DNA of 64,000 bases. Source: Stegostoma tigrinum (taxonomy: Eukaryota). Position numbers and translations under genes: made by a program. The notes beneath the pieces are model-generated. The model had not been told where the DNA came from. It did not search any database and saw only the letters and a list, made by a program, of their open reading frames with translations. The DNA is taken from positions 4,744,163 to 4,808,162 of the forward strand of contig NC_081394.1 of the NCBI RefSeq assembly GCF_030684315.1, read 5' to 3'. Of this stretch, positions 546 through 60,200 are shown one piece after another (the stretch's first letter is position 1; every line of letters starts with the position of its first letter).

Positions 546-645
546 CACAAGAACAGAAGTTGCTGGAAAAGCTCAGCAGGTCCGGCAGCATCTGTGAAGG
601 AAAAAACAGGGTTAACGTTTCGGGTCCAGTGACCCTTCCTCAGCA
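546..645 (-). mobile_element. Second Penelope-type terminal-repeat family with hammerhead motif (related copies near 26120-26260, 53965-54075, 54640-54740)
   Basis: Minus strand 643-612 reads CTGAGGA-a-GGGTC-actg-GACCC-GAAAC-GTT-aa, followed by GATGCTGCCGGACCTGCTGAGCTTTTCCAGC. Confidence 0.6.
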
Positions 646-1414
646 CATCTCGGAGGAAACCCTTCCATCTCCAGAAACAGTTTACTCGGAAAGAATTATC
701 GCTGGTTCTTTCAATCCATGGAGCAGGTGAATTAGTGAAGTCTTCACAAACATCATCCCCTCTGTCTCTGAGATCCGCACGCTCCCTCAGCCTCATCCAT
801 TTCCCAACGTTTTTGATTGTGATTTATTATTGTCACATGTCCCGAGATAGAGTGAAAAGTATAGTTCTGCGGGCCAACTGGAGAAATTGTACCTGACATA
901 AGTGCAAACTCCACACAGACAGTCACACGAGGCTGGAACCAAACCCAGGCCCCTAATGCCGTGAGGCAGCAGTGCTAACCACTAAGCCACCTACTTCATC
1001 CATCCCATTCCCCTGTTCCTGTTTCCTCTACCCTTCAGTCCCAAGATCTGTAATCTATCTCCTTATGGAAAATAGTCAATGTTTCCTGTGGCAGAGAAAT
1101 CCATGCCACTCTCCGGCTGAGGTGTCCCTCTCTCCTCTTTGCAGATCACTGGCTAACTTAGTGTCGTGTCTCATGGTCAGTGTGTAGGTATAGCTCTGAG
1201 CCTCACACACACTGGGCTGGATTTTAACAGCAAACCACCGATGAATCCCAACCCCACCACCCCACAACTCACCACATCTCTCGTCAATACATACCCTCAG
1301 TCTACATCTTCATCCCCTCTATGAATCTCCACTATATCAAGTCCTCGTCGCTCTCCTCCCTATTTCGGGTAAATAAGCTCAATCTACCTTTAATTCGGCC
1401 TCTTATTGAGAAAT

Positions 1415-5069: not shown

Positions 5070-8000
5070 CTGTGCCAGGGGAGAGAGAGAGAGGGAGAGG
5101 GAGAGAGAGAGAGGGAGGACCATGTTCATTGTCAGACACAGTGTGTACGCGCCACCTGGTGGGTGTAAGTGGACTTGCATGAGTCCAACAACACCCCAAA
5201 ACACCGACAAAACTCACTCAGGCACTTCACCGAGATAACACAGTGTGGAGCTGGATGAACACAGCAGGCCAAGCAGCATCTCAGGAGCACAAAAGCTGAC
5301 GTTTCGGGACTTACCCTTCATCCGAAACGTCAACTTTCGTGCTCCTGAGATGCTGCTTGGCCTGCTGCGTTCATCCAGCCTCACATTTTATTATCTTGGA
5401 ATTCTCCAGCATCTGCAGTTCCCATTATCACAGGCACTTCAACAACACATTTCTCTCGAATCTAGCCATCGCACACCACTTCGTCATTCATGCTGCCCAG
5501 GACGGGAGGGGCTGGAGGGGGTTACAGAGATAGGGAGGGGGTGTAGGGGCTGGAGGGGGTTACAGAGATAGGGAGGGGGTGTAGGGGCTGGAGGGGGTTA
5601 CAGAGATAGGGAGGGGGTGTAGGGGTGGAGGGGGTTACAGAGATCGGGAGGGGGTGTAGGGGCTGGAGGGGGTTACAGAGATAGGGAGGGGTGTTGGGGC
5701 TGGAGGGGGTTACAGAGAAAGGGAGGGGGTGTAGGGGTGGAGGGGGTTACAGAGATAGGGATGAGGAGGGGGTGGAGGGGTTACTGAGATAGGGAGGGAG
5801 GGGGTGACAGAGGTCGGAGTGGGAGGGAGATGAGCTGTTAAACACAGGAGTGACTGCTGCAGCTGACGTGAAAAGTTGATGCTGAGCTGTGATGCTCCAC
5901 GTAGTCAAACAGCTCTAACACTAACTTTACGTGTGAACGACGCACTGCCTGATGAAATGGGGGCGGGTCAAGCGGTGGCGCCCCCTACGTAGGGGAGAGG
6001 ACCCTGCTGGTCACTGGGAACAGCACAGGGAGAGCACACTCACTGAACACCCAGGGCCATCATCAAACTAAATAATCAGCCCCCTCTGACCAACTCACCC
6101 CTCACCCGAAAGCGCAGAGCCGTCCCTCAGCCANNNNNNNNNNNNNNNNNNNNNNNNNNNNNNNNNNNNNNNNNNNNNNNNNNNNNNNNNNNNNNNNNNN
6201 NNNNNNNNNNNNNNNNNNNNNNNNNNNNNNNNNNNNNNNNNNNNNNNNNNNNNNNNNNNNNNNNNNNNNNNNNNNNNNNNNNNNNNNNNNNNNNNNNNNN
6301 NNNNNNNNNNNNNNNNNNNNNNNNNNNNNNNNNNNNNNNNNNNNNCATACATTCACAAACGAAGAAAGATTTGGGGAGCCAGAGAGAGGGCTGGGATGAG
6401 AGACAGACAGACTGAAAGAGGGTCAGTCATAGATATTGAGAGAGAGAGAGAGAGACGGGGAAGGGAGGGGGGCTACAGGAGGAGGAGGGAGGCACAAAAG
6501 GAAGGAGATGGGGGAGAGGAGGACAAAGAGAGAGGGTCAAACAGAGGAAGAATGGAGAAGAGATGTAGCACAAAGGAGTGGGAGTGTGACAAGAGGATTT
6601 TCGAGAAGGGGAGAGAGAGACAGAGGGGTGGAGAAACATGATACTAAATAGAGAGGGGATGAGGTTAAACGACTGAGCAAAACAAGTTACCTGTTGCAGA
6701 GCGATCAACCTCGATGTGGTTCTGCCGGGCTGCAGAGCGCACACCTGTGTGTGAGAGAGAGAGACTGTGAAAGGAGTCAGAGAGGAGGGGGGAGGAGCAG
6801 CTGTTCGAAGCCCTAAACCCCAGAGAGACTGCCACAGCCACCTTCCCACGCCCCCGCCCACCCCCACTCCGAAAGCCACCCCACGGCCCACTCTCTCCAG
6901 AGAGAAAAGCCAGCCTATGCTTCCCTCTGATGAAGGGTCTAGGCCCGAAACGTCAGCTTTTGTGCTCCTGAGATGCTGCTTGGCCTGCTGTGTTCATCCA
7001 GCCTCACATTTTATTATCTATGCTTCCTCTGTCAGCTTTTGTGCTCAGTCCCTTCGGAAATCAAACCATAAAATCTACTGAGTTGATGACTGTGACACAG
7101 AATGGGCCATCAGTAAAACAAACGGGCCATATGGCCTCCTCCTGGTTAGTGGTACCAGCTCCGTGACCCAAGCAGGGGCTGGGGGTTGGGGGGGAGGTGG
7201 CTGAGGGGGTGGGGGGGTTGTTTTAGTGGGGGAAGGACAAGGAAGAGGTCTAGGCAGAGCCAGGCAGCACAGAAACAGGATCTTCGGTCCATCCTGTCCA
7301 TTCCAACCAGGCTTCTCAAAGTAAACTTGGCCCCTATCCCTCTAAACCCTTCCCTATCCATGTCCCCAATCTCTTAAATGCTGTAACCTGTACCAGCCCC
7401 CACCACTTCCTCTGGCAGCTCATTCCATACACGCACCACCCTCTGTGTGAAAAAGCTGCCCCTCAGGTCCCTTTTCAATCTTTCCCCTCTCACCTTTAAC
7501 CTATGCCCCTCTGGTTTTGGACTCCCCCCAACCTCTGCAGGGAAAAGATCTTGTCTATTCACCCTATCCATGGCCCTCATGGTTTTGTAAACCTCTATAA
7601 GGTCACCCATGAGTCTGACACTCCGAAGGAAAAATTCTCAGCTTTTCCAGCCTCAAACCTTCCAATCCCAAGATCATCCTGGTGAACCTTTTCCACACTC
7701 TTCCCAGTTTAATAGCATCCTTCCTGTAGCAGGGTGTCCAGAACTGAACACTGTCCTCCAGAAGTGACCTCTTACCTCTGAATTTTTTGTTCCATATCCA
7801 GACGATTGCAATCAGAAGGCACACACAGGCTATGACAGCAACTGTCACATAGAGAGCGATGAGGTAGTGAGGGTTAGCAGTTCTAAAAGGCAAGCTGGTG
7901 TTGCTGGAGGCATCTGCAGGAGAACGGGCAGAAAGGGGCAACTTTCAGCTCAAGGATAAAATTGTATCAGAGACAGTGGGAACTGCAGATGCTGGAGAAT

Positions 8001-11000
8001 CCGCGATAACAAAGTGTGGGGCTGGATGAACACAGCAGGCCAAGCAGCATCTCAGGAAGCCAAAAGCTGATGTTTCGGGCCTAGACCCTTCATCAGGGGG
8101 TCTAGGCATGAAACGTCAGCTTTCTTGCTCCTCTGATGCTGCTTGGCCTGCTGTGTTCATCCAGCCCTACACTTTGTTATCTCAACTTACAACTCAATGT
8201 GTTTTTTTTCCCGTGATAAAGCACTGTAACATGGTGCAGCTGTTCCTTCACAGCAGTGACACAATGAAGCCAACACATACAGTGACCATCCGTTAGCGAT
8301 GCGCTATTCGCGCTCACAGTTACTGAGCCTTGCCCTGGGACGTTGCATGGACTGGGCGGGACACATTCTCCACGCACACCCCCAGCAACCCTCAACTTCA
8401 CTCCACTCTGAGGGAGCACATCAGTTTCCAGAGCGCACACCGTGCTCTGAGCTAATCAATATCCCCATACATGGTGTCTGATTAGAATCCAGCAACATTC
8501 CCAGCGTAGAAGGAGCTTTACTCTGTGCTGTCCCTGCCCCAGGAGTGTTTGATGGGGGACAGTGTCGAGAGTGCTTTACTCTTATTTTTCCATCCTTTAT
8601 TCATTAACAGCCTGAGGGTGTTGCTGGCCGGACAGCATATATTTCCCATCCCTAATTGCCCAGACGGCAGTTAAGAGTCAACCACATCGCTGGGGTCTGG
8701 AGTCACATGTAGGCCAGACCAGTTAAGGATGGCAGTTTCTTTCCCTAAAGAACATTGGTGAACCAGTTGGGTTTTTTTTCCTGACAATTGACAATGGATT
8801 CACGGTCTTAGATTCTTAATTCCAGATATTTTTATTGAATTCAAATTCCACCATCTGCTGTGGCAGGATTCGAACCCAGGTCCCCAGAATGTTATCTGGG
8901 TCTCTGGATTAACAGTCCAGCCATAATACCACCAGGCCATTGCCTCCCCTCCCTCCCCCTCTGTATCTAACCCTGTGTTGTCTCTATCCTGGGAGTGTTT
9001 TAATAGGGTTGGGAGGGGAGAATGTTGAGTGAGTTTTACTCTTCAAAAATCCCGTGCTGACCCTGTACTCTCTCCCTACTGGAAGCCAGTGTGAGCGCTG
9101 AAAAGAATGATATTGAGGTCTGGAGCTCAGGTCCCTGTGTTTTGGAGTGACAGTTCACCGCTCTGCAACAGCGAGCTCACTTTGAAATCACTTACATGCC
9201 CAAACAATGGAATCCAGGCGCTGCTGAATCCTGCTGTTAAAGACAGAACAGCGGACTGACGTTCCCACAGCAGCAACGATCCTGAGGCTGCTGGTGACAT
9301 TGTACAGGCCAGAGACAGGATCCTGTTCCACTGAGGTGTTCACCTCAGCATCTCGGCCCAGAGGTCTCCCAGCATCATCCGTCCAGTTCACAACTGGAGC
9401 CGGGAAGCCTCCAAAGGAATGGCAGCTCAAATTCACGGCCAGACCCGCACCCAGAGATTCTCCTTGTGAAGCCGATAACACAGGAGGCTGGTAGGGAGCT
9501 AAAGCAGGGAAAGAGATATCTCAGTTTCAGACATTCACAGCGACCTGTGTTACTGACTGTATCCCTACTGATGTTAATCCCTCTCCCTCACACTGTCACT
9601 CAGTAACCCCTCTCCCCCCCAGGACCCTGTGTTACTGACTGTATCCCTACTGATGTTAATCCGTCTCCCTCAGACTGTCACTCAGTAACACTTCTCCCCA
9701 CCAAGGGCCCTGTGTTACTGACTGTATCCCTACTGATGTTAATCCCTCTCCCTCACACTGTCACTCAGTAACCCCTCTCCCCCCCAGGACCCTGTGTTAC
9801 TGACTGTATCTGTACTGATGTTAATCCCTCTCCCTCACACTGTCACTCAGTAACCCCTCTCCCCCCCAGCGCCCTGTGTTACTGACTGTATCCCTACTGA
9901 TGTTAATCCGTCTCCCTCAGACTGTCACTCAGTAACCCTTCTCCCCACCAAGGGCCCTGTGTTACTGACTGTATCCCTACTGATGTTAATCCCTCTCCCT
10001 CACACTGTCACTCAGTGACCCCTCTCCCCCCTCTGCCCCCCCCCCCCCCCCCCCGGGCCCTGTGTTACTGACTGTATCTCTACTGATGTTAATCCCTCTC
10101 CCTCACACTGTCACTCAGTAACTCCTCTCCCCCACAGCGCCCTGTGTTACTGACTGTATCCCTACTGATGTTAATCCCTCTCCCTCACACTGTCACTCAG
10201 TGACCCCTCTCCCCCCACAGCACGCTCTGTTACTGGCTGTTTTCCAGGATGGATGAGAGTGTGGAGGAGAGAAGACTTCCCCTACCTAAGAGGTATGGCC
10301 CGTTCTAAAGCCAGTGCCTACCAGCTATATACAGTCGCAGGTGACATGCATGAACCTTCTTGTCGTTGAGGAAGAAATAGCAGTGATATTCCACATCATC
10401 TTTCACAGTGAGGTTGCTCAGTTGCAGGGAGAGGTTTCCTCTGACTAACTCAGTCTTGGGGACTGTAGTTCTTCCTCTGTAATAACTTTCCACGTATTGT
10501 TCTTCAGGCTTCCCATTGGAAAAGACATAGGCAACCTTTTCGGGAGAAAACTGCCAATAAATTCGGGCTGACGTGAGAGAGACAGGCCCCATCACCTCGT
10601 AAATACAGGGTAATAATGCTTGACCTCGAACCAACCCAGTCACAGCACGGCCCGGTGCAGAGTCTGAAAGCACAGGCAATGACAGCAGAATTAAAGCCTA
10701 TTCTCAGCATGTTCAATCCCACAACATTCCCCAGCCCCACACCTCCCTGAGGGAGCAAGCCCCGCCACCACTCCGCTGAGCGTGTAACCCCCACACCATT
10801 CCCCCACCACCCTCCCTGCGAAAGTGACCTCCACACCATTCCACCCCCACTCCCTGTGAGAGTGTAGCCCCCACACCATGCCCCCCAACTCCCCGCGAAA
10901 GTGACCCCGACACCATTCCCCTCCCCCACTCCCTGCGAAAGTGACCCCCACACCATTCCCCCACCACACTCCCTGCAAAAGTGACCTCCATACCATTCCC

Positions 11001-14477: not shown

Positions 14478-14675
14478 GCAGTAGGAGCTGCAGATGCTGG
14501 AGAATCTGCGATAACAAGGTGTGGAGCTGGATGAACACGGGAGGCCCAGCAGCATCAGAGGAGCAGGAAAGCTGACGTTTTCTGAAGAAGAGTCTCGACC
14601 CGAAACCTCTGCTTTCCTGCTCCTCTGATGCTGCCTGGCCGGCTGCGTTCCTCCAGCTGTACACTGTGTTCTCTC
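14478..14675. mobile_element. Inverted Penelope mini-element in gene A intron 1
   Basis: Same family, diverged. Confidence 0.7.
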
Positions 14676-14763
14676 TGATGTGGTTTGGCGGGGCTGGTGT
14701 GGTGTTTTGGGACACTGGGAACGGTTGGGTCTCTGCGTAACACCAAGAAGAACAAGCACTCAC

Positions 14764-15050: not shown

Positions 15051-15239
15051 CCTGTCACTTACACACTCTGGGGAGCTGTGAGGTCGGAGCTCAGTGTGAA
15101 CGCGAAAGCCCCAGCGCCAGCTTCCAGGCGCAGCGAGGGCGAAGCCCCGGCTCGAACATTAAACTCGCAAAGGGATCACACATCTCCCGGTCACTTTGTG
15201 TCCGAACACGTTAACCTCACGCATGAGAGACCAGGTGTA

Positions 15240-23099: not shown

Positions 23100-24625
23100 A
23101 CTATTAGAACAAGGAACAGGCCACTCGGCCCACTAAGACTGTGCTAACACATCATTGTCTTTCTGAACTGAAAACCTTTTTAGCGTCCACAGCGCCTGTA
23201 CCTCTCTATTCCTTGCCTGTTCATATGTCATCTCTTAAACTTTGTGCGGAGCTGGATGAACACAGCAGGCCAAGCAGCATCAGAGGAGCAGGAAAGCTGA
23301 CGTTTCCAGTCTGGAGCCTTCTTCATTCTTCGGAAGCCAGGCCCGAAACGTCAGCTTTCCTGCTCCTCTGATGACGCTTGGCCTGCCACGTTCATCCAGC
23401 TCTGCACCTTGTTATCTCAGATTCTCCAACATCGGCAGTTCCTACCATCTCTTAAACCTTCCACCTCTACCATGTCCTCTGGTCGCATGTTCCGGGCACC
23501 CACGAGCCTCTGTGTAAAAATCTGCCTCTCACATCTCCTTTGAACCTACCTTAGACCCTGGTAACTGACATCTCTGTCCTGAATCAAAGACTCTGACTAT
23601 CCATCCCTCTTGATCAGATTGTACGCCCCACTCCAACCCCATCCTTCAAAGTTTAAGTGGAAACATAAAGGGTTTGTTCAACCACTTCAAACAGCTAATA
23701 TCGCGCCCCCAACACCCTCCACCACCCTCCCCCCCTCCCCCGGTACCAGACAACATCCTGGTAAATCGTTCCTGCCTCCTTACCAAAGCCTCCACCTACT
23801 TCTGATAATCTGGCAATATTCCAAATGTGGTCTCACTCAAATTCAACACAGCCTGCCTACAACATGGCTCGGCAATTTTCATACCCAAACACCCTGTCCG
23901 GTGAAGACAAGGCTGCCAAATCCCCTTGAGCCCCTTATCAACTTGAGATTGGACTTTGTACTGTGGACCTGCTCGCTCTGTCGATGCTGCCCACCGTATT
24001 ACTGTCCATTTCTCTCCTGCATTGCATCTTCCAAAATGCATCGTCTGGCCTTTGCCCAGACTAAACTCCGTCTGCTATTCCTCCACCTGACGTCTCCAGC
24101 CCGTCGAAATCCTGCCGTCCCCTCTGCCCAATCACCCTCACAGCTTCCCCAACCTTTGTGCCATCCACAGACGCATTAATTGTGTCACCTACATTCTGCT
24201 CCAAACCATCGATATAAATATTACAAACAACCAGAGGCCCCAGCACTGATCCCTGCCGAGCACCACTGGTCGCACATCTCCAGCCAGAAAAATGCTCTCC
24301 CGCTGCCTCAATCTGTCTTCCAACACCAGACCTGTTCTGCATCCAACTTCGCAGCTCATTCCAGATTACATGGGATTCCATCACATCCTCTGGCAGCTCA
24401 TTCCATACATGCACCACCGTCTGCCTGAACAGGCTACTCCTTAAGTCCCTATCCACGCCCCTCACTATTTTATAAACGACTATAAGGTAATCCTTCAGCC
24501 TCCAATGCTCCAGGGAAAATAGCATCAGCCTATTTAGCCTTTCCCTGTAGCTCAAACCCTTCAACATCCTTAAATCTTAGCTGAACCCTTTCAAATTTAA
24601 CAACATCCTTCCAATAGCAGGGAGA
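23100..24625 (-). mobile_element. Old CR1-type LINE fragments
   Basis: SGARQGSVLGPL, MHFGR, LSYRERLNRL motifs, degenerate. Confidence 0.7.
23240..23452. mobile_element. Inverted Penelope mini-element nested in a CR1 fragment
   Basis: Same family; CATCTCTTAAAC occurs on both flanks. Confidence 0.7.
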
Positions 24626-24634: not shown

Positions 24635-25445
24635 AAGATAATAAAATGTGAGGCTGGATGAACACAGCAGGCCCAGCAGCATCTCAGGAACACAGAAGCT
24701 GACGTTTCGGGCCTAGACCCTTCATTAGAGAGGGGGATGGGGTGAGGATTCTGGAATAAATAGGGAGAGAGGGGGAGGCGGACCGAAGATGGAGAAGAGA
24801 AGATAGGTGGAGAGGAGAGTATAGGTGGGAAGGTAGGGAGGGGATAGGTCAGTCCAGGGAAGATGGACAGGTCAAGGAGGTGGGATGAGGTTAGTAGGTA
24901 GGAGATGGAGGTGCGGCTTGGGGTGGGAGGAAGGGATGGGTGAGAGGAAGAACAGGTTAGGGAGGCAGAAACAGGTTGGACTGGCTTTGGGATGCAGTGG
25001 GTGGAGGGGATGAGCTGGGCTGGTTTTGGGATGCAGTGGGGGGAGGGGACCAACTGGGCTGGTTTTGGGATGCGGTGGGGGAAGGGGAGATTTTGAAGCT
25101 GGTGAAGTTCACATTGATGCCATTGGGCTGCAGGGTTCCCAAGCGGAATATGAGTTGCTGTTCCTGCAACCTTCGGATGGCATCATTGTGGCACTGCAGG
25201 AGGCCCATGATGGACATGTCATCTAAAGAATGGGAGGGGGAGTGGAAATGGTTTGCGACTGGAGGTTCAGTTGTTTATTGCGAACCGAGCGGAGGTGTAC
25301 TGCAAAGCGGTCCCCAAGCCTCCGCTTGGTTTCCCCAATGTAGAGGATGCCACACCGGGTACAGTGGATGCAGTATACCACATTGGCAGATGTGCAGGTG
25401 AACCTCTGCTTAATATGGAATGTCATCTTGGGGCCTGGGATGGGG
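24635..25445 (-). mobile_element. Penelope-like element 3' fragment (GIY-YIG endonuclease plus terminal repeat)
   Basis: NVVYCIHCTRCGILYIGETKRRLGDRF and EQQLIFRLGTLQPNGIN; ends in the hammerhead-bearing repeat (core mutated to CTAATGA). Confidence 0.85.
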
Positions 25446-34974: not shown

Positions 34975-35648
34975 CTCTCTCACCAACCTCCGCTCAGTTC
35001 GCAACAAACAACTGCACCTCCCAGTCGCAAACCATTTCCACTCCCCCTCCCATTCTTCAGATGACATGTCCATCATGGGCCTCCTGCAGTGCCACAATGA
35101 TGCCACCCGAAGGTTGCAGGAACAGCAACTCATATTCCGCCTGGGAACCCTGCAGCCATATGGTATCAATGTGGACTTCACCAGTTTCAAAATCTCCCCT
35201 TCCCCCACTGCATCCCTCAACCAGCCCAATTCGTCCCCTCCCCCCACTGCACCACACAACCAGCCCAGCTCCTCCCCCCCACCCACTGCATCCCAAAACC
35301 AGTCCAACCTGTCTCTGCCTCCCTAACCTGTTCTTCCTCTCACCCATCCCTTCCTCCCACCCCAAGCCGCACCCCCAGCTACCTACTAACCTCATCCCAC
35401 CTCCTTGACCTGTCCGTCTTCCCTGGACTGACCTACCCCTCCCTACCTCCCCACCTATACTCTCCTCTCCACTTATCTTCTTTACTCTCCATCTTCGGTC
35501 CGCCTCCCCCTCTCTCCCTATTCATTCCAGAACCCTCCCCCCATCCCCCTCTCTGATGAAGGGTCTAGGCCCGAAACGTCAGCTTTTGTGCTCCTGAGAT
35601 GCTGCTGGGCCTGCTGTGTTCATCCAGCCTCACACTTTATTATCTCTC
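34975..35648 (+). mobile_element. Penelope-like element 3' fragment, same family as 24635-25445
   Basis: LRSVRNKQLHLPVANHF...EQQLIFRLGTLQPYGINVDF followed by a terminal repeat with an intact hammerhead core. Confidence 0.85.
35553..35582 (+). ncRNA. Minimal hammerhead-ribozyme motif
   Basis: CTGATGA-a-GGGTC-ta-GGCCC-GAAAC-GTC-ag. Confidence 0.7.
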
Positions 35649-35940: not shown

Positions 35941-37332
35941 GCAAATATCCTGCAATTTTCTCGGTGTTTCGAATATCATTTCACCCTCTCCAATGCGAAG
36001 CTCAGATTTACTGAAAACAAGAATTGCGAGAGATCCCAGTGGGCCAGGCAACATTCATGGCCGGAGAGAGCAAGCTAATGTTTTGACTCGAGATGGCTGT
36101 TCATCAGATTTAACCCGGAAAAGATCCATGCGATCCTCATCTCCGCGTTTGACAAAAGAACTCCAGGTGCATCCAGCCACTTTGAGTGGGTGCCCACGAT
36201 GACCAGGAACGTTGAGCCCAGGAATGGACCTGCATGCACAATGTGTAGCTGAGTCCCGGGTCTATTCCTACAAGTGCGGGGCAGCTGCTGCCAGTAATGT
36301 CTGTCCTTGATGGCACTCTGGGCACTGCCCCACCAAAGCGGCTATGTCACCATCCAGTCCTGGCCAATGGACATAAATCTTCATTGTGGAGACCCCTCGA
36401 AAACCCTGGTGGAGTTCAGCCAGTATCTGGTAGTGTCCTTTGCTCGGGACAACCACTCTTGCTCCCCATAATAATCTGCCTCTGGTGTCTCTCTGCATCC
36501 AAAAATGTCTCAGTTCTGGTTGTGATGGCCCTTTGGTTTCTCCACGATCACCAGCTGATTCAGTTTTGCCAGGATCGGATCTTCCTGCATCTAAAGTCTA
36601 GTATTGTCAGCTGTGAGTGGAAGGATGACAGAAAATTTAAAACCATTACAATCTCTTCCAGTGCTGGTCCATCGGTGGTGTATCTCCCAGCGGGAGGCAG
36701 CTCAGTGCATCCACATTGGCCTCCTGGATGGGTGTTCTAACTCGTGATCATATGCGCATAGTGTTAGAGCCCAGCACCGAGTTCAGCCTGAAGCTGTGGG
36801 TGGCCCTGCCTTGCCCTCTTTCAGCAGACCTTACAGGGATTTGTGGTCTGCAACATTGTAAATTTATGTCCTCAAAGGTATCGGTGGAACTTCCTGCCTC
36901 CAAACGTTTCTTCACGATCTGGGTGTATCTGCATTCGCCAAAGTCCTCGACCCCACGCACTAATGGATGCTCCTCTCCATTTGACCCCCTATGAGCCAGT
37001 ACCATGCCGATGCTGTGCGGGGAAGTATTGCATGTCAGTACCAAATGCCACTTGATACCCTCGTGTGCCAACACCTTAGAGGATGACAGCTGTTTCTTCA
37101 CTTCCCTGAAGGTTACGGCTTGGCTACGCAATAACTTCCAAGGCATATCCTTTTTTAAGGAGTTGGTGCAAAGGTGCCAGGATGGAGTTTTCAGTCATAA
37201 TTCACCAGCCCAAGGAAAGGCCTAAGCTCCAGCACAGACATAGGAGCCAGGGCACCTTTGATCGTCCTCACTTCATCTCTAAACAGGTGTAACCCGGTTT
37301 GTCAACTCTGTAACCCAAGTAGGTCACTTGGG

Positions 37333-37548
37333 GTAACAAAGTGTGGAGCTGGATGAACACAGCAGGCTAAGCAACATCCTAGGAGCACAAAAGCTGACGT
37401 TTCGGGCCTAGACCCTTTTCATCAGAGAGGGGTCTAGGCCCAAAACATCAGCTTTTGTGCTCCTGAGATGCTGCTTGGCCTGCTGTGTTCATCCAGCTCC
37501 ACACTGTGTTATCTTGGATTCTCCAGCATCTGCAGTTCCCATTATCTC
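37333..37548. mobile_element. Inverted Penelope mini-element nested in Gypsy pol
   Basis: 13-bp flanking duplication TAGGTCACTTGGG (37320-37332, 37549-37561). Confidence 0.8.
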
Positions 37549-42618: not shown

Positions 42619-42828
42619 AACATAATGGGAACTGCAGATGCTGGAGAATCCAAGATAATAAAATGTGAGGCTGGATGAACACAGCAGGCCAAGCAGCATC
42701 TCAGGAGCACAAAAGCTGACGTTTCGGGCCTAGACCCTTCATCAGAGGGGTCTAGGCTCGAACCGTCAGCTTTTGTGCTCCTGAGATGCTGCTTGGCCTG
42801 CTGTGCTCATCCAGCCTCACACTTTGTT
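42619..42828. mobile_element. Inverted Penelope mini-element
   Basis: 19-bp flanking duplication ATCTGAGAGAGATACATGA (42600-42618, 42829-42847). Confidence 0.8.
42716..42745 (-). ncRNA. Minimal hammerhead-ribozyme motif in an inverted Penelope mini-element
   Basis: Reverse complement reads CTGATGAAGGGTCTAGGCCCGAAACGTCAG. Confidence 0.68.
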
Positions 42829-43739
42829 ATCTGAGAGAGATACATGATTGCTCAGGGATATGGGCCCAAGGCAGGTAGATGGAGCTCAGCCCCCATGATC
42901 CCATTGAATGGCGGAACTGACCAGAGGGACTGAATGGCCTCGACACAGTCCCCTCTCTGAGCCATTGGAGGGAGGAGTAAGACAAAACTTTTCCCTGGAA
43001 GTATTTTCCGGCTCTCATGACAAAAGTCCAGCTGATTTTTTCTTGATCTTCTTCCATTCTTTTACACTTCACACACAGGTGCTTGGGATGGGTGACTCCT
43101 GGTTTCACTCCCTCTGTGAGCAGGCCAGCCTTAGAATCTGGGGGCCCACATCCAAATGCCTGGGCCAGGCACCCTCCGCGTCCTTGTGGGAAATTCCTGG
43201 GGATTGAGGGCATCCTAGATAAGGAAATCTGAGAGGAGGGGAGGGAATATTCCCCTCTGAGCCTCTCTCTCCTTGGAGAAAAAAATGCATTCTTTTTCAT
43301 TCATTTGTGGGATGTGGGTGTCGCTGGCTGGGCCCAGCATTTATTGTCCCTATCCCCAGTTGCCCCACCTTGAGAAGGTGGGGGTGAGCTGCCTTCTTGG
43401 ACTGCTGCAGTCCTTGAGAAATTCTGCCGAGTTTCGCAGAGATTCACCTGGAAAGGATGGGCCAACTTGGGAGGACAGCCTCAAGGATCGGGGCATGGGG
43501 ATGAGGGTCCGGTCGACCTAGCCGGCACGGTTCAAAAACAAATCCACAATCTTATCGTTGCAATCGGGCCAGGCACAGAGGGGGAGCGAGGAAAACTCCG
43601 AGCAGCCGGGAGAGGAGTTGCCATCTTCTGAGGAGGGAGGTGTGGGCAATGGGCAGGGCACTTCAAGCACAAGGTGTCGAGTAGAATTCAATCCACACAC
43701 CCAGTTGCGGAAGATGTGAGCTGTCAGTGCTCAACAGTT

Positions 43740-45050: not shown

Positions 45051-46642
45051 TCTTATTCGCTGCAAATGTGCAGGTGCTCCCAGAGGTGCACGCAGATGCT
45101 GTTGGTTCTGTTTCATTTCGCCCCCACTACTGCTCGGTGATTTCAAGTGATGGAGTGGAAGCTTTCCAGTGTGTGATGATCCCACGCTGAGCGCTGGTGG
45201 GGCTACCCTGGGCACAGGGTGGCAGCATTCCCTTCAGGAAGGATTCCAAGCTGGCACACGGGGAGAAGGGGATGGTGAAGCCAATGTGCAGATCGCTTCC
45301 CTTCAGTTTCCACCTTGCCTGGCAGGAAACCAGGTGAATGGAGGCGAGGTTCGGAGAACAGTGCAAAGAAATCTCACTCGAGGGAGAGAAATGACCCCAG
45401 GTCCCTCCTTCTAAATCTAGGAGGACTATCGATCTGACACTCCCTCCCCCAATAAACACCCCCCCCCCAAATCGCTGCCAACCTCCAACCAAGAGAGATC
45501 ATTGGCAGCATTTACTCCTGAGGACCTGAGGCTCCCAAATATTGCCACCTTGGATGCAGTGTCCCAGTGCCCCCAATACCATCCCACTCAGCTTTCTAAA
45601 CTCAATGACTCACCTCCTCTGTTTTCCTGCCATTCTGGGAGTCCTTAGCATTACGCTGCCTGTCTCCTTCCTGTACTCTATCTCACTACTGTTTGAGATC
45701 CGACCCACTGCAGTGGTGATGTCAACCAATTTGTAACTGGGGTTAGCGCAGAATTTGCTCACACAGTCATACATGCAGGAGGAATGGAGTAAGGGGACTG
45801 AGTGTGCAGCTTCATGGGGCATGCCATGCACACTTGGCCCTTCTCCTACGCACCCTACTTGCACACCACGATACCCATCTCGCCCGTTTCTGACCTACTG
45901 TTGTGGTGCCAGGCTCATGCAGCTTATAATCCAGACCACGCAGTGGCCCCAGCACACTCTCTCTGTTCTGAATGGGCACATGTTTGCCAACCCCAGCTCC
46001 TGGGCAGGTACCAATGTGCCAGGCTTCCAGCTAATCTGGAATGGATAGGATTCTTGGCAGTGTGGAGGAACAGAGGGGCCTTGGTGTACAGATACATAGA
46101 TCCCTTAAAATGGCCACCCAAGTGGACAGGGTTGTTAAGAAAGCATATGGTGTTTTGGCTTTCATTAACGGGGAATTGAGTTTAAGAGTTGTGAGATCTT
46201 GCTGCAGCTCTATAAAACTTTGGTTAGACCGCACTTGGAATACTCCATCCAGTTCTGGGCACCCTATTATAGGAAAGATGTGGATGCTTTGGAGAGGGTT
46301 CAGAGGATGTTTACCAGGATGCTGCCTGGACTGGAGGGCTTATCTTATGAAGAGAGGTTGACTGAGCTCGGACTCTTTTCATTGGAGAAAAGGAGGAGGA
46401 GAGGGGACCTAATTGAGGTATACAAGATAATGAGAGGCATAGATAGAGTTGATAGCCAGAGACTATTTCCCAGGGCAGAAATGGTTAACACGAGGGGTCA
46501 TAGTTTTAAGCTGGTTGGAGAAAGTATAGAGGGGATGTCAGAGGCGGGTTCTTTACACAGAGAGTTGTGAGAGCATGGAATGTGTTGCCAGCAGCACTTG
46601 TGGAAGCAAGGTCATTGGGGTCATTTAAGAGACTGCTGGACA

Positions 46643-47469
46643 TTCTGGATGTGAGTTTGCTCGCTGAGCTGGAAGGTTAGTTTTCAGACGTTTCGTCACC
46701 ATTCTAGGTAACATCATCAGTGAGCCTCTGGTGAAGCACTGGTGTTATGTCTCGCTTTCTATTTATCTGGTTAGGTTTCCTTGGGTTGGTGATGTCATTT
46801 CCTGTTCTTTTTCTCAGGGGATGGTAGATTGGCTCCAAATCAATGTGTTTGTTGATGGAATTCCGGTTGGAATGCTATACTTCTAGGAATTCTCGTGCGT
46901 GACTCTGTTTGGCTTGTCCTAGGATGGATGTGTTGTGCCAATCAAAGTGGTGTCCTTCCTCATCTGTGTGTAAGGATACGAGTGATAGTGGGTCATGTCG
47001 TTTTGTGGCTAGTTGATGTTCATGTATCCTGGTGGCTAGCTTCCTGCCAGGATACATGAACATCAACTAGCCACAAAACGACATGACCCACTATCACTCG
47101 TATCCTTACACACAGATGAGGAAGGACACCACTTTGATTGGCACAACACATCCATCCTAGGACAAGCCAAACAGTGACATGCACGAGAATTCCTAGAAGC
47201 ATGGCATTCCAACCGGAATTCCATCAACAAACACATTGATTTGGAGCCAATCTACCATCCCCTGAGAAAAAGAGCAGGAAATGACATCACCAACCCAAGG
47301 AAACCTAACCAGATAAATAGAAAGCGAGACATAACACCAGCGCTTCACCAGAGGCTCACTGATGATGTTACCTAGAATGGTGACGAAACGTCTGAAAACT
47401 AACCTTCCAGCTCAGCGAGGAAACTCACATCCAGAACATCAACCTGAGCTACAAATCTTCTCAAAACTC
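46643..47469. mobile_element. Penelope-like element inserted as a 390-bp-arm inverted repeat inside a CR1 LINE
   Basis: Arms 46643-47032 and 47047-47436 with a 14-nt spacer and 33-nt tail; flanking duplication ACTGCTGGACAT (46632-46643, 47470-47481); arms translate to a GIY-YIG endonuclease C-terminus (GRKLATRIHEH...AREFLE). Confidence 0.85.
47356..47395 (+). ncRNA. Minimal hammerhead-ribozyme motif in Penelope terminal repeat (mirror copy 46684-46723, minus strand)
   Basis: tca-CTGATGA-t-GTTACC-tagaat-GGTGAC-GAAAC-GTC-tga. Confidence 0.7.
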
Positions 47470-48134
47470 ACTGCTGGACATGCATATGGTCACAGAAATT
47501 TGAGGGTGCAAACATGAGGATCAATGGTCAGCACAACATCGTGGGCTGAAGGACCTGTTCTGTGCTGTACTGTTCTATGTTCTATGTTCTAATCTGCCTT
47601 ACACCCCCACCCACCCACACTGCGCAATCCCTCAGAGGCATTTTCTTTAAGGGAAATACCCTGGTGAGATTTCTCCCTGTTTTAAAAGCTAAAATCCTCC
47701 ATCCAGAAGTTGCCCTTTTAATTCATGTGTCATCAAAATTCTTGAAATCTAAAGTGAACTTTTAACTTCCGTTTCCAACTTCCAACATCTGAATCCATTG
47801 ATACTCCCTCCATTCAGACATTCCCCCAACACCCCCATCCACCGCCCCCACACTCCCAAAATAGACTGCACCTTCTTGGAGTCAACACTGCACAGAGATT
47901 CAGATCAAATATATTCCATATCTAACCCTGTGCTGTCCCTGTCCTGGGAGTGTTTGATGGGGGATAGTGTAGAGGGAGCTTTACTCTGTAGCTAACCCTG
48001 TGCTGTCCCTGTCCTGGGAGTGTTTGATGGGGGATAGTGCAGAGGGAGCTTTACTCTGTATCTAACCCTGTGCTGTCCCTGTCCTGGGGGTGTTTGATGG
48101 GGGATAGTGTACAGAGAGCTTTACTCTGTATCTA

Positions 48135-52813: not shown

Positions 52814-54175
52814 GTAGGCTTCTCAGGGTTCCCTCTCTTTTTGAAGGTCACTGAGGGACTGAGTCAGGATGAGAACATCTCTTCGGAGAAGGACAATCCT
52901 CCTCAGAGTAGGGAAGGCTAAGAAGGAGATTGAAGTGGGGCTGTGGGGTTCAGACTCGCCAGTTTCAATCGGGTCAGTGAGGGAGACACTGTTCCCAGGC
53001 TGGATGGTCAGTCACCAGAGGGACGCAGATTGGAGACAGTAGGGAAAAGGCCTGGAGTGGGGGTGTTGGGGAACGGGGGAGAATTTTGCTTTTCCTTCGA
53101 CCCCGAGAGTTCTTGTCAGCACCTGTCACAGGGAGGGTTCACCAGGAACCGTCCAGAAAGTGAAATACGTAAAAGCAAAAGATTTGCAGGACAGATGGGG
53201 AGAACAGCAGAAGGGGAATGGGAATTCATTGGTGAGNNNNNNNNNNNNNNNNNNNNNNNNNNNNNNNNNNNNNNNNNNNNNNNNNNNNNNNNNNNNNNNN
53301 NNNNNNNNNNNNNNNNNNNNNNNNNNNNNNNNNNNNNNNNNNNNNNNNNNNNNNNNNNNNNNNNNNNNNNNNNNNNNNNNNNNNNNNNNNNNNNNNNNNN
53401 NNNNNNNNNNNNNNNNNNNNNNNNNNNNNNNNNNNNNNNNNNNNNNNNNNNNNNNNNNNNNNNNNNNNNNNNNNNNNNNNNNNNNNNNNNNNNNNNNNNN
53501 NNNNNNNNNNNNNNNNNNNNNNNNNNNNNNNNNNNNNNNNNNNNNNNNNNNNNNNNNNNNNNNNNNNCGTGACTCCAAACCAACAGCGAATGTGGCTGAC
53601 TCTGAACTGGGCAATAATTGCTGCTCAGCCAGTGAAGCCCTCATCCCATGAATGAAAGAAAGACACATCCTGTCTCGTTGCAGTAGGATTGAGCTTGTGA
53701 ACAGCTAGACTACAATTGCAGTGAGATCCAGCGTGTGGATAATTAGAGTCTAGTTGCGAAAAGATGCTTCGGGAGGTTAGTGAGAGATTAATTGCATCTT
53801 CGGGGCGGTTAGAGTTCAAGTGCTTTTAATTGCGTCTGAACAAATGCAATGCACTCAATTTCATTTCCACAGAAATATAGAAAGCCTAACTCCTCAAAGC
53901 TTCCCTTCCAGCCAGCTACTGAACCACTACAGTTTGGCCCAATCCTGTTTTCTCCCAATTAAACCAGTAATTGCTGGAGAAACTCAGCAGGCCTGGCAGC
54001 ATCAGTGGAGAAAGAGAGAGATAGAAACAGAATGAACATTCCTGGTTCAGAGGGTGAAGAAGTGACCCTTCTTCATTGGGATAGTAACTGGGGTAAGGTT
54101 GGTATTTATATGATGACCGGGGGCCGGAGAGAAAAAATAGTGGATCTGGTTGAGACGGATCCCAGAGAGAGAGAG

Positions 54176-54215
<40 letters not shown>

Positions 54216-57200
54216 GGTCAGGCAAACAAAGGGATAAATAATGGTGAGCCAGGGAGAAAGGGAAGCTAATAATGGTGCCCATACAGTGGTGGGAGGGGGC
54301 TGAGGGTGTGAGAGAATGAATTAGCTGTGCTGAAAGCAGGCAGTGGAGAGTGGGGAAAGCTCATGGGCGAAAGTGTTCACGCCCCCAAATTATTGACATA
54401 TTGAGTCCCGAAGTCTGCGGGGTCCCCCAAGCGGAAGATGAGGTGCTGTGAGCCCAGCTGGCACTGAGCTTGGCTGGAGCACCGCAGCAAGCCTAAGACG
54501 GAGGTGTCGACCAAGGGAACACAGGTGAAAGTGGCAAGCAACTGCAAACGTAATGTACTCGATCGCCATCTCAATCCGTTACCCTGCACCCTCTGTTGTC
54601 AGATAAATACCACCCTTTCCCCAGCCCCAGTCAGTTCTGCAGGAGAGTCACTGGGGCCTGAAATGCTCACTCGGTTTCTCCGTCTACCGATGCTGCCAGA
54701 CCTGCTGAGTTTCTCCAGCAATTTCTTTTCTGACTTTCACTGACTTACTTTCATTTTACTGTTAACATCCACTGTCTACATGTTGGCCTGGAACAGGATT
54801 CTCTACTGAGCTTTGGAACTGATCCCAAGCTAATTGTTACTTGTGGATATTTTAGTTGGCAGCATCTTGTGTTTGAAACGTTATTTTATACAGTCCCATG
54901 TAATATACAAATATAACTATTAAGAAGTCAGGCCCAAAGAATTCTCATCAAGCAACAGAAGACAGGATAGAGGTCTCAGTAATGAAATAATGAGACAACA
55001 AGAGGGTGACACAGAACCTGGCTATTTCCATTTTGAGCCCATCATGATGATTGTCAGAATTGTAAACTTCAAACAACTGAGCCAATTTAATTTTGATTTA
55101 TTATCGTCACATGTACCTGGGTAGAGTGAAAAGTTTTGTTTCGCATGGAGTGCAGAAAGATCAATAGGTGGATAGCAAGAACTGCCTATGCTGGTGATCC
55201 TGAGATAACAAGGTGTAGAGCTGGAGGAACGCAGCAGGCCAGGCAGCATCAGAGGAGCAGGAAAGCTGACGTTTCGGGTCGGGACCATTCAACAGTGGTT
55301 GAACAGAGCGAGGAATACAAAGTTACTGCGCAGAGAGGGTGTGTACAACAAGAAGATCAGGGTTAGATTTGAAATTTGAGTGGCCCAGATAGAAGTCTAA
55401 TAACAGCGAGGAAGCACCTGGTCTTCAATCTGTTGGTAACAAGGTGTGGAGCTGGATGAACACAGCAGGCCAAGCAGCATCTCAGGAGCACAAAAGCTGA
55501 CGTTTCGGGCATAGACCCATCTGTTGGTGCTGTTTGAGTTTTAAAAACTGCAGGGATTTGGCTCTGAATTGCTAAAGAGAACAGGAAATTAAAACCTCCT
55601 TGATCGCTGAGTAATTATGATAAAACTACTCAATTATGTTGTTTGCAGGGGATTGAGCATAATCATAATATCTATGCTGTCAAGAAGCTACATATATTCT
55701 CTGAATATAAAGGATGTTCTGACTTACCCCCGAACATACAAAACTTTGTCCACTGCGATAGTTTGAAACTTGGCATTCTTGCAGGGGAGTTAATGTAGGC
55801 CAAATTTTTCTGCTCCCAACAAGGTTTGAGCTATCTGGGCAGCCCAAAGCTGAGCTTTCTGTGACAAAGGCTTGGCAGTGAGGTTTGGCTGATCCCAGCA
55901 AGCATGAAATTGACAAATGTTCTGGGATTGCGGTTCTCAGAGGAGGTTCGGCAGGGCGATAACATCTGGTGATGAAAATGGGGAGGGCCGGCCAGATGGC
56001 TCCCATCTCCGATCGGGTCGATCCCATCCATCGGAAGGGAAATGTAAATCCAGCTGTAAAGGGAACTGCAGATGCTGGAGAATCCGAGATGACAAAGTGT
56101 GGAGCTGGATGAACGCAGCAGGCCAAGCAGCATCTTAGGAGCTCATCCAACCTCATCCAGCTCCGCACTTTGTCATCTCTGTAAACCCAGCTCCCTGGAA
56201 TTTGGGAGAACGTGGTGGCGAGCATCAGACTGTTGAGGAATAACCCAAATCCGCTTCACTGATGCCCGCCAGGGAAGGATATCCCGGTCTGGTCCCACTT
56301 GTGACTCTGGAAGGACGGGAAACAGAGTGGAGAATGCTATCCCAGCTGATTCCGAGCATCATTCCCAGCTTTGCCCAAGTGTAGCGAATGGAGAGCAGTG
56401 CCAGGGAGTTAAAAGGATCAGCTCCAAATTGCCTAGAAGTTTTCCTCCAGCAAAGGGGTAGGGATAGGATCAGTGGGTGAGTGAAGAAATTGGCAAATAG
56501 ATTATAACGTGGGTAGGAGGAGGATTCTGCAAGCTACAGAGCAGAAGTAGACCAGCCAGTCCAGCCTGACCTATGACCTAACTCTACATCCCCAGCCTTG
56601 GCTTCATCTCCCTTCATCATTTTGACTTAACAAGAAAAGGTTATCTCTCCCAGATTTCAAAAACCCAGCACCTGCTGGTACCTGTGGAAGTGAGTTCCAA
56701 ACATCTCCCTGTTGTGTGTCGAAGCGATTCCTAACGTCTCCACTGAACGCCCTGGCCGCCGCTCTCAGGCTCTGCCTCCTATTTCTAGAATCCCCAACCA
56801 GTTTTTATTGGCCCAGGGAGCATTGAAGGGCAGCGAGCACACTATTGAGGTGAAAGAGGGATTATAGACCTCTGCGATTCACAGAGATGTGGAATGCAGC
56901 TCAGCCCATCCCACAAACCAGCCTTCCATCCATTTCCTCTGTCTACATTTCCCCCTGCCTTGGGAAAGCTGGCAACATCATCACCCACCCCACTCTTCCA
57001 ACTTCTGGGCAGAAGATTACAGATAGTTTGAATGCACATACTGTCAGATTGAAAACAGCTTCTTCCCCGCCGTTATTACACTTTTGAGCAGACCTCTCGG
57101 ACGTTAATTCTGACTTCTCTCTGTCTGCACCTTCTCTGTATTCTACTCTCTGTCCTGCTACCCTGATGCACAATATATGTTACAATCTGCCTGCACGCCA

Positions 57201-60200
57201 TGCAAAACAATACTCTTCACTGTGTTGTGGCACATGCGACAACATGGTGGCCGACTGTTTAGCGCTGCTGCCTCACAGCGCCAGGAACCCAGGTTCGATT
57301 CTAACCTCGGGCAGCTGTCAGTGTGGAGTTTGCATGTTCTCCCAAAAGCTGCCAGACCTTCTTCAAGGTCCTCCAGTTTCCTCCAGAGTCCAAAGGAGTG
57401 CAGGATTGGCCATGGGCGGAAATGCAGGGACAGGATAACCGTAGGCAAGGTGGTGTTGGGCTCAACAAGTCGATTTGCCTGCTTCCCACACCGCAGGGAG
57501 TTTTGTTTTGAAAAGAATCGAATGATAGGATAGGACAGGTACAGCGAATGGCTCAGAAGCAAGATGACTTTTTTGGCGTGTACTGCAAGGGAAGTGGGGA
57601 TGTACAAATGGGGAAGTTTTGCTGCAACCTTTCCGAGCTTTGTGGAGACCACAGACAGAGAAACACGTCCTGCTCTTTTTTAGGGAAGGAGATGCTTGCC
57701 TTGGAAATAGTTCAGAGAGGGTTCACCTGGTTCGATCCTGGACCCCTTTCCTCAGACGCAGAAAATATTTGAGAAGAATTTGTTCGCTGGCCCTGGGTGT
57801 CACTTATTTCCCAACCCCTTTGTTGCCTAGGTGCAATGGCTCCATTCGGCCCATTGAGATTCCTCTGCCATTCTATGAGATCGTTGGCAATTCTGATCAC
57901 CCTCTCCTCTTCTCCTCCGTAAACTCGGGTTCCCTCCACCGACTGAAAATCAACCCCGTTGCTATGGATCTGGAGTCACGCGTAGGTGACCCCAGGGATG
58001 GGAGGGAGGTGTTGGGTAAAGGACAGCAGATAACCCAGGCATTCAGAAACAGTGTTTCTAACGAGGCAGTCGAGCTAGCTTTTCTGTTTTTAAAAGTTAA
58101 ATTCAAGTTGCAGGAGGTACCATGACCAAACCCCAGAGCATTAGTCAGGAGCTCTGCTGGGACATTTGAGTTGTAAAAGAGACTGGGACAACACAGTGTG
58201 GAGCTGGAGGAACACGGCAGGCCAGGCAGCATCAGAGGGAGCAGGAAAGCTGACGTTTCGGGTCTGGACCCTGGGGACTGTTTTCCAGTGCGGAATGAAC
58301 TTCCTGAGGAAGTGGTGGATGTGCGTACAATTACAATGTTTGAAAGACCTTGAGATAAGGACATGAATGGGAAAGGTTTGGATGGACGTGGGCCGGGAGC
58401 AGGCAGGTGGGACTGGTTGGGTTTAGGTCTACAGTCGGCATTGACTGGTGGACCAAAGTGTGTGACTACTCCTGCGATAATGTTACTGTCTCGCCATCTT
58501 CAGCCGATGCCCATTGGGGATGAACAAGAAGGAGAGGTGATCTTGTTAAAGGTTAGAGGATCCCGATAGAGCCAATTGAGAGACAGATTCAGAATGAAGC
58601 GTTTTACCTCAAGAAAAATGGAGGTGAACAAGCATCTGTTCTCTCAGACAGTTACGAGTGAAGAGATAGTCTGATGAGCAAAGGTTAAACAGGCTGGCAT
58701 TTTACACATTGGAGTTCAGACAAACGGGAGATTATCTCATTGAAACATATCAGATTCTTTAAGGGCATGACAGGGTAAATGCTGAGAGGATGTTACGCCC
58801 TCATGAGGAGAGTCCCGGACCAGAAGGTGTAGTCACAGAATAAAAGGGCACTAAATGTAAGACTGAGATGAGGAGGAATTTCTTCTCTCAGAGGGCTGTG
58901 AGTCTTTGGAACTCATTGTCTCAGAGAGCCGTTGGTGGCGGTGGGGGGCGGGGGGGTGCAGAGTCCTTGAGTATATTTAAGTCTGAGACAGATTCTTGAT
59001 CAGTTGGGGGCTTATGAGGAAGAGGGGACATGAGGAACATCATAGGAGCAGCCGTGATCCTATTGAATGGGGGAGCAGGCTTGGGGGCCAAACGGCCTAT
59101 TTCTTAAGGAGTGGTTGGCATCCATTCTACCAGCAGCAGACCCCCTAACCGCCTCGCCCCCAACTCCACTTGGAGAGCAGGAGGGATTCTGGGCCATTGG
59201 AGAATGTTGAGAATTGGGAATGTTCCCAAGGAATGTGGTTTCGGGGTGGAGGGGGGGGGGCAGCGGTGGAAGCTGGTGGCGGGGGGAGGAATTTGGGAAG
59301 GGCAGCGTCTGAGAGTGTGGCACGGTCAGTTCAAATGGGGACCTCCAGAAGGGAGTGGGATCCTTAAACCCAGAAGATGAGGGTGGGGTGGGTGGGAGGG
59401 GAGAGAGAAAACAGTGCAGGGGTCAACGGAGAGGGATGGGGATGGTGGCAAGTGGTGGGGGTGGGGCGCTAACGGAGATTGGCACGCAGGGAGCGATGGG
59501 CTGAATGGCCACCCGCCTCGCTGTGCGGCGATCCCATTAAACTTTCCTCCTCTGCTGTTCTGGCCAGCTACCAGTTGCGACGGAGTTCAGGAGCTCAATA
59601 TGACGGGCCCATACGGGGGCGAGGTGATCCTGCCTTGTTACTTGACAGAGGCCTACAGAGCATACTGGCAGACCGAGGCAGAAGATCGACCAGCGCTGGT
59701 GAACGCTTTTTGCCATGAGGAAGTGTCGGGCTGTGACAGCATCAGCGCCCAGTACATCAACCGCTCGTGCTTCGTCCACGCAGAGAAGTCGGGGAATTTC
59801 TCCCTTCGTCTCTGGGACCTCAGGCCCCGCGACGAGATGACCTATCAGTGCGTGCTGCAGTCACAGCAACGGTCCAATGTCAAGTGTTACAGACTCCGAC
59901 TGAGCATCGAAGGTACGGCTCATTTCTGAAGCAGCCCTGAAAGCGGCCCTTTGGTCCCGTTGCCCCCAGACTCGCCCGCTGTGAGGTGCCCACCGAAACA
60001 CTGTAGAAGGGAAGACGGTGGTGGCGACTTCGGCCAACCAAGACAGCGCCCCCAACTCAGACTTCGCCAATGTTACCGAGGCTCCCAGACCTGTTTCCTA
60101 AGCAATGAATTCCAGACACTGACCACCCCCTGGGGTGGAAATCATTTCCCTCGAATCCCCTCATAACCCCTTGCTCCCCGTTGCTCCCTCGCCCTTGTAT

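Follow-up and report, generated by a model that had tools for sequence, protein, structure and literature searches.

The 64-kb window analyzed here (64,000 nucleotides of Stegostoma tigrinum contig NC_081394.1, forward-strand positions 4,744,163 to 4,808,162) contains two B7-family-like host genes and a dense scatter of repeats in which a minimal hammerhead ribozyme motif is intact or, in most, broken or missing. Judged by alignment, these repeats, which we sort into families 1 to 3, are end-pieces, or pseudo-long terminal repeats (pLTRs), of Penelope-like elements (PLEs), putatively of Neptune and Poseidon type. Nine of the insertions are head-to-head inverted pairs, here called hairpins: seven family-1 units, the unit at 25752-25912 (U7) and the single family-3 unit, an arrangement absent from an earlier note on this DNA that was made from the sequence alone. 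In the six hairpins that could be tested the arms are not sister copies, being no more alike than unrelated copies of the same subfamily. Genome-wide evidence is limited to reads and contigs aligned on one 721-nt stretch; everything else concerns this one window.

Repeat families and insertion anatomy

A core scan combined with BLAST and profile searches yielded 23 alignable family-1 arms in 15-16 insertion units, in line with the more than a dozen occurrences reported earlier; rather than being identical to the terminal repeat, the copies match the one at 35553 at 77-98%. Short arms outnumber long ones by 21 to 2 in the alignment, and the 22 arms long enough to classify divide into subfamilies a (12 arms; branch support 99/95) and b (10 arms, with no long copy in the window). 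Family 2, distantly homologous to family 1 (71-73% identity over ~80 nt), has four copies in the window, while family 3 is a single inverted pair whose ~400-nt arms code for the C-terminus of an endonuclease, so that the earlier picture of three families of mini-elements does not hold. The insertions are as follows (family 1 unless stated; "tail" denotes the optional extension at one end).

5232..5428: U1, hairpin, tail on the + arm; 11-nt target duplication; arms differ in haplotype
6925..7019 (+): U2, solo short copy with intact motif (6927-6954), untailed; 10-nt target duplication
7975..8185: U3, hairpin, tail on the - arm; arms of subfamilies a and b; no clear target duplication
14482..14679: U4, subfamily-b hairpin, tail on the - arm
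23243..23448: U5, subfamily-b hairpin, tail on the + arm; 12-nt target duplication; short junction filler
24636..25452 (-): U6, putative Neptune-type copy, 5'-truncated, with frame-broken GIY-YIG segment and pyrimidine-rich 3' untranslated region (UTR), untailed; core mutation in its pLTR; 15-nt target duplication
25468..25556 (+): U6b, subfamily-b arm head to head with U6; the 15-nt target word recurs, for the third time, beyond it
25752..25912: U7, hairpin of a tailed subfamily-b arm and a ~23-nt partner; 14-nt target duplication; inside a family-2 remnant
28106..28230 (-): U8, tailed arm whose 5' end carries a 10-nt mirror
34986..35646 (+): U9, 5'-truncated copy beginning past the GIY-YIG motif; intact minimal hammerhead (35553-35580), untailed
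37332..37546: U10, hairpin, tail on the + arm; motif with three extra bases (37396-37425) on the untailed - arm; 13-nt target duplication
42622..42833: U11, hairpin, tailed - arm with intact motif (42718-42745); 19-nt target duplication
55176..55294 (-): U12, tailed solo copy of subfamily b with a mutated core
55436..55522 (-): U13, solo untailed copy beginning within the motif; 10-nt target duplication
56058..56183: U14, short hairpin lacking hammerhead sequence; target duplication of 13 nt, one of them mismatched
58186..58273 (-): U15, untailed solo copy of subfamily b that begins within the motif
548..643 (-): family-2 copy, intact core (614-643), 5-bp stem II, stem I partner absent
26095..26250 (+): family-2 copy, tailed, cleavage triplet mutated
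53959..54073 (-): family-2 copy, degenerate, from a profile search of which it was itself a seed
54638..54733 (+): family-2 copy, degenerate, likewise a seed of the profile that found it
46643..47470: family 3, probably Poseidon-type head-to-head pair, arms of ~390 and ~410 nt, tail on the + arm; 12-nt target duplication

Exact target-site duplications of at least 10 nt (10-19 nt) flank 9 of 17 units, compared with 1 of 272 mismatched flank pairs; their variable length supports retrotranspositional insertion. The Penelope origin and the minimal-hammerhead anatomy proposed earlier are supported as well. Published insertions of endonuclease-bearing (EN+) PLEs consist of a pLTR, an adjacent inverted 5'-truncated copy and an optional 30-40 bp tail (PMC8557442; PMC3846280), and the same combination is found in the window. 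All nine head-to-head pairs have a tail on exactly one arm. A single duplication encloses the whole unit in U1, U5, U7, U10, U11 and family 3, with no copy of the target at the junction; as read by eye, the junctions are overlaps of a few bases or short fillers, and three hairpins turn at the same overlap between a G-run and stem II. In U1, U4, U5 and U10 the tail sits on the arm with the shorter 5' reach, and its longer-reaching partner has none.

Other identities were considered for these repeats and set aside. Descent from a tRNA-derived short interspersed element (SINE) is contradicted by the 5' part, which aligns to the pLTR instead, and ARAGORN found no tRNA gene, a weak test for decayed heads; MITEs (miniature transposable elements with inverted repeats) do not fit target duplications of 10-19 nt, ends made unequal by the tail and variable junctions. 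A non-LTR retrozyme would call for head-to-tail tandems, none of which was seen in the window, where every adjacent pair of copies found is inverted, and a single hairpin master is ruled out by variation in junction, tail side and arm haplotypes. An exact 30-letter pattern occurred at no locus in viral_contigs or metagenome_contigs.

Two places hold more complex arrangements. Between 24624 and 25572 one 15-nt target word occurs three times around U6 and U6b, from either two insertions at one site or a jump onto the target within one event, and at 25690-26250 family-2 pieces lie on both strands, U7 being nested in one of them under its 14-nt duplication.

The window copies read as truncated relics of EN+ PLEs, with no Penelope reverse transcriptase (RT) detected in them by reading-frame and Pfam scans, of which one Pfam sweep took in 150 references picked from 201 reading frames (the remainder being scanned separately or left out). 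Of the two elements described earlier as encoding GIY-YIG, the one at 24636-25452(-) does contain such a segment, albeit frame-broken, whereas that at 34986-35646(+) starts past the GIY-YIG motif. The domain, at 25226-25480(-), matches Pfam at E 5.8e-4, under the curated cut-off, and the U6 segment is 93% identical to protein P0001 (labelled Stegostoma tigrinum), whose C-terminus reads through the family-1 repeat, and 90% identical to a Rhincodon protein. Relatives carry RT plus GIY-YIG: RVT_1 matched P0002, P0032, P0039, P0040 and P0042, and not P0001 at E<=0.01. A CX2-5CxxC linker between RT and endonuclease is the hallmark of Neptune elements (PMC8557442); it was read in P0001, P0002 and P0032, and the U6 copy begins just past its position, so that, from the linker in its relatives, family 1 is put down as putatively Neptune-type. 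Family 3 shows 89-92% identity to P0039/P0040. Its two arms, which differ at 8 positions in 390, both include an endonuclease C-terminus as well as an intact motif (46687-46720, -; 47359-47392, +). Because the matched shark proteins have no CX2-5CxxC linker (the zinc finger-like linker is absent from P0039, P0040 and P0042, and the arms themselves stop short of that region), family 3 likely belongs to the Penelope/Poseidon clade. A protein of Hemiscyllium ocellatum annotated as "CUE domain-containing protein 2 isoform X1" (P0038) ends in a fragment of the family-3 endonuclease (89% identical), by exonisation or as an annotation artefact.

Hammerhead motifs and the 5' ends of inserted copies

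A minimal-hammerhead descriptor that included the ACGT palindrome matched the window seven times, compared with no match in 297 of 300 shuffled windows and one match in each of the other three. Of the seven intact motifs, four are in family 1, one in family 2 and two in family 3, and all have the core, extra base, stem II and palindromic substitute for helix III of a minimal type-I hammerhead. The intact copies listed earlier are present at 6927-6954(+), 35553-35580(+) and 42718-42745(-) in family 1, at 614-643(-) in family 2 and at 47359-47392(+) in family 3, where a further one lies at 46687-46720(-). Stem II, 4 bp long in family 1, is paired in all three families despite its change in sequence, and the G10.1-C11.1 pair is kept. 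As for the single extra base, only three of the 23 family-1 arms fit the motif as quoted in the earlier note, the fourth intact one (37396-37425) having three extra bases. Helix I spans 2, 2, 2, 2, 3, 3 and 0 bp in the seven motifs (2 bp in family 1, 3 bp in family 3, absent at 614-643), short of the 4-5 bp of the Schistosoma motifs; that of D. virilis has 2 bp (PMC4209133). An Rfam search at E<=1 returned 11 matches, all to microRNA families far below their gathering scores and none to a hammerhead family.

In 19 of the 23 family-1 arms the motif is missing or broken, many arms starting inside it and so lacking the CTGANGA half. Excess conservation of the core is not seen among inserted copies: private mutations affect 5 of 143 core positions and 23 of 1382 downstream (Fisher p=0.18, the trend being opposite to sparing), and with 8 private changes in 149 stem II is hit more often than the downstream sequence (p=0.008). 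The source lineages offer a hint of such conservation, since variants shared by subfamilies occur at 0 of 10 core columns and 19 of 63 downstream ones, small numbers that point weakly to selection on the source elements. The hammerhead is thus a passenger in the inserted copies, its core not being spared after insertion, and it is likely under selection solely in the source elements.

Predicted folds of monomers have the core paired with the cleavage-site strand or unformed, with scores no better than those of shuffled sequences. Within 200 nt of context the pairing probability of stem II is at most 0.02 in family 1 and 0.8-1.0 in families 2 and 3; within 61 nt the family-1 stem II forms, yet the core pairs with the cleavage-site strand (z ~0). 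This predicted misfolding of family-1 monomers fits the published behavior of minimal motifs, which are inactive as monomers and weak as dimers (PMC4209133). The anole motif requires protein and is dispensable for insertion (PMC11167929), and in Xenopus one of nine dimers cleaved (bioRxiv 10.64898/2026.07.22.740005).

None of 24 arms begins at the cleavage site, nor do ends pile up there among the read rows listed, which rules out cleavage as the origin of the 5' ends. By eye, 19 of the 24 arms start within one ~30-nt stretch on the 5' side of the motif, upstream of the cut site; three of the remaining arms are shorter, two measure 660-816 nt and none falls between 105 and 600 nt, a distribution that a one-rate truncation model fits poorly (p ~1e-13 and 6e-7). 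The same edge appears elsewhere in the genome. Loose ends of contigs from run X1 pile up at 35552 (698 records, agreement 0.37, diverse flanks) and at 35645 (852 records), and depth steps up at 35555 by ~3-fold in X1, by 4-10-fold in X5 and likewise in X9, although contig depth is not a copy number. Raw bisulfite reads of run X20 contain strand-switch joints at 35554-35564 (204 reads, 109 starts) and 35554-35570 (284 reads, 120 starts); bisulfite conversion shifts these joint coordinates, and loose ends and joints alike are counted among the rows listed.

Over the 3' UTR, the 1,938 million letters of X20 give a depth of 15,000-19,000 on one strand. With a genome size that we take to be 3-4 Gb, this implies on the order of 10^4-10^5 longer copies genome-wide, so that the density of copies in the window need not be exceptional. 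In the same run, the non-CpG G positions listed between 34980 and 35530 are ~96-98% converted, and the CpG G positions checked by eye do not appear among the rows listed, a pattern that hints at methylation of these elements.

Partner arms and the origin of the hairpins

In seven hairpins, 24 of the 50 non-CpG arm differences involve alleles that both occur in at least two other units, whereas 20,000 runs of a single-template null averaged 7.0 and never exceeded 18. Mutation hot spots are not supported as the origin of these shared differences, private mutations not being enriched at polymorphic columns (8 of 34 mutations; 24 of 79 columns). In six testable hairpins the distance between partners is 0.112, as against 0.102 for random pairs of the same subfamily and 0.062 for the nearest non-partner, and a tree constrained to make all six pairs sisters is worse by 39.1 log-likelihood units (joint approximately unbiased (AU) test, p=0.0022). 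Individual units show the same mixture. Six of seven non-CpG arm differences in U1 (AU p=0.025) and seven of 13 in U4 are common to other units, the arms of U3 lie on opposite sides of the a/b split in the tree, and the tailed minus arm of U11 equals the solo copy U2 over 85 columns, yet differs from its own partner at five positions. The arm tests omit the 23-nt arm of U7 and the mirror of U8, the tree and AU tests omit the short arm of U14, and U6/U6b is not counted as a hairpin.

Because partner arms are as different as random copies of one subfamily, each hairpin likely derives from two RNA templates. We propose, with a probability of roughly two in three, that the stubs are short cDNAs primed inside element RNA and that the hairpins are two such cDNAs, from different templates, joined head to head. 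Transcription would start within the pLTR near the 5' edge of the motif (PMC11167929, PMC2377424), and the element protein would nick both target strands and prime at two internal sites, about one tail-length apart, on uncut RNA. A cDNA that does not jump would run ~100-125 nt to the 5' end of the RNA and integrate as a solo stub, while two cDNAs made on different templates (two RNAs, or the two pLTRs of one tandem RNA) would be end-joined into a hairpin under a single target duplication. A more specific form of this idea, in which double target-primed reverse transcription is carried out by one asymmetric complex acting on both nicked strands with two RNAs, of which one is primed at the tail site and the other at the tail-less site, and the products join through the G-run/stem II overlap, seems to us evenly balanced between right and wrong. 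The short copies would likely be dead on arrival, abortive cDNAs rather than a self-propagating family; since the RNA required for activity of the anole element extends past its priming sites, stubs would not recruit the protein again.

Several observations weigh against two templates. Tested pair by pair, the AU test rejects sisterhood for U1 alone (0.025), with values of 0.067 for U4, 0.071 for U10, 0.147 for U3 and 0.296 for U5, U11 not being included among these single-pair results. The arms of U14 are mutually nearest over 26 columns; those of family 3 stop within ~14 nt of each other in the endonuclease region, with mismatches at no more than 8 of 390 positions, as fits single-template snap-back; and U8, with its 10-nt mirror only, is also snap-back-like. 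The rule of one tail per pair is left unexplained by the two-template model, since in the anole element both strands used the priming sites alike (PMC11167929). Finally, the alignments have 85 columns and come from one window, and the idea of two templates was formed by eye before the tests were made.

Self-priming on one template is the model proposed for rotifer Penelopes (PMC3846280). Applied here, such a snap-back would produce arms identical at birth that were later diversified by ectopic gene conversion at unstable palindromes, imperfect hairpins surviving preferentially. Family 3 and U8 resemble its products, a G-run/stem II overlap is the turning point common to three hairpins, and conversion donors are plentiful, to judge by the X20 depth over the 3' UTR (15,000-19,000 on one strand); to reach the random-pair distance, however, conversion would have to replace nearly the whole arm in most hairpins, and in U1, U4, U5 and U10 the arm with the longer 5' reach is untailed, so that simple copying cannot supply the tail of its partner. 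We regard this explanation as rather improbable. Two successive insertions, the second at the head of the first, are suggested by U6/U6b, with its thrice-repeated 15-nt target word and arms of different subfamilies, and the endonuclease of the anole element is able to cleave the junction of its own pLTR (PMC11167929). For the hairpins in general this seems very unlikely indeed, given the single whole-unit duplication and the lack of a target copy at the junction in U1, U5, U7, U10, U11 and family 3, as well as the exactly one tail in all nine pairs.

The earlier note took the repeats for non-autonomous, ribozyme-bearing retroelements, and short units that propagate as families of their own, like SINEs or retrozymes, with an internal promoter, hammerhead-cut RNA and re-mobilization in trans, would account for the excess of short over long arms (21 to 2), the lack of a long subfamily-b copy in the window and the recurrence of the hairpin junction in reads; the Drosophila pLTR indeed holds an internal promoter (PMC2377424). 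Against this, junction, tail side and arm haplotypes vary among the hairpins, tandem units were not seen, none of the copies begins at the cleavage site, most copies have no intact motif, the core is not spared and monomer folds are no better than those of shuffled sequences. We consider self-propagation unlikely, and the description of the repeats as families of that kind is not upheld.

Host genes, known systems and significance

The repeats lie around two divergent B7-family-like genes whose best PDB matches are CD276 and ICOS ligand and which are ~49 kb apart (10308-59926), with no further host exon found between them in scans of the window.

7775..10697 (-): B7-family-like gene 1, with IgV (10308-10697) and IgC (9191-9520) frames and a transmembrane (TM) exon at ~7775-7912
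59381..62103 (+): B7-family-like gene 2, oriented away from gene 1, with frames for IgV and IgC

The earlier statement that the repeats are scattered through immune-gene introns stands for one unit: U3 (7975-8185) is in the intron between the IgC and TM exons of gene 1, ~60 nt upstream of the TM exon's splice acceptor, and is the only unit shown to be intronic. U1 and U2 are 3' of this TM exon, and most other units lie between the two IgV exons; because leader exons were not identified for either gene (two candidates being unconvincing), the units at 14.5-58.3 kb cannot be called intronic. With arms of ~90-100 nt forming a near-perfect hairpin by the TM-exon acceptor, U3 could affect splicing or undergo editing as double-stranded RNA.

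Other repeats share the window. Decayed pol pieces of an LTR retrotransposon lie beside U10 at 36271-37194(-) (RNase H-like, E 9.5e-9; integrase zinc-binding, E 4.8e-5), and family 3 and U6 sit in or beside frames at 46169-46640 and 24064-24576, respectively. These frames, which have no Pfam match, resemble the ends of open reading frame 2 of CR1/L2 long interspersed elements. Tandem repeats make up ~17.4 kb of the 64 kb, with dispersed minisatellite families of 32, 38 and 70-71 nt at several sites and on both strands.

With EN+ Penelope-like insertions as described (PMC8557442; PMC3846280) the units share head-to-head inverted ends, a tail at one end, variable target duplications, heavy 5' truncation, a hammerhead in the pLTR and a GIY-YIG domain at the C-terminus. 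They differ in often comprising just two ~100-nt arms with sharply clustered 5' ends and in having partner arms of different subfamily haplotypes, the last of these being a point that we did not find in the literature searched. Like the minimal hammerheads that metazoan PLEs carry (Cervera and De la Pena 2014, PMC4209133), the motifs have a CUGANGA...GAAA core with one extra base before stem II, the G10.1-C11.1 pair and a palindromic 15.2-16.2, and mostly lie singly and scattered on truncated elements, some being closely paired on opposite strands. The Anolis Poseidon element PAc (Frangieh et al. 2024, PMC11167929) is similar in that two kinds of 3' end, with and without a tail, match two internal priming sites and that its inserts include the hammerhead uncut; in vitro, extension takes place on both strands of the target. 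Family 1 is instead of putative Neptune type, and the main text of the PAc paper gives no account of how inverted pairs form. Animal non-LTR retrozymes (bioRxiv 10.64898/2026.07.22.740005) are likewise non-coding, hammerhead-bearing, pLTR-derived and dispersed as monomers; retrozymes, however, are arranged head to tail in tandem, every unit having its own ribozyme, whereas the pairs in the window are inverted.

In summary, the window is another instance of known Penelope biology, in which the earlier claims about ribozymes and introns were overstated; since minimal hammerheads on numerous scattered Penelope ends were already known, the finding as then written is ordinary. The repeats should be annotated as Penelope stubs rather than as SINEs, MITEs, microRNA precursors (a reading that the weak Rfam matches might invite) or working ribozymes. 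For the formation of inverted ends and one-sided tails, the published model that we found is single-template self-priming; no two-template or twin-priming model of Penelope inverted ends turned up in the literature searched, which was mostly open-access. Shark genomes, with several subfamilies and many hairpins, permit a direct test by comparison of partner arms, and the present window points to two templates. If double target-primed reverse transcription is the true explanation, the hairpins of sharks would be a very large natural record of the joining step.

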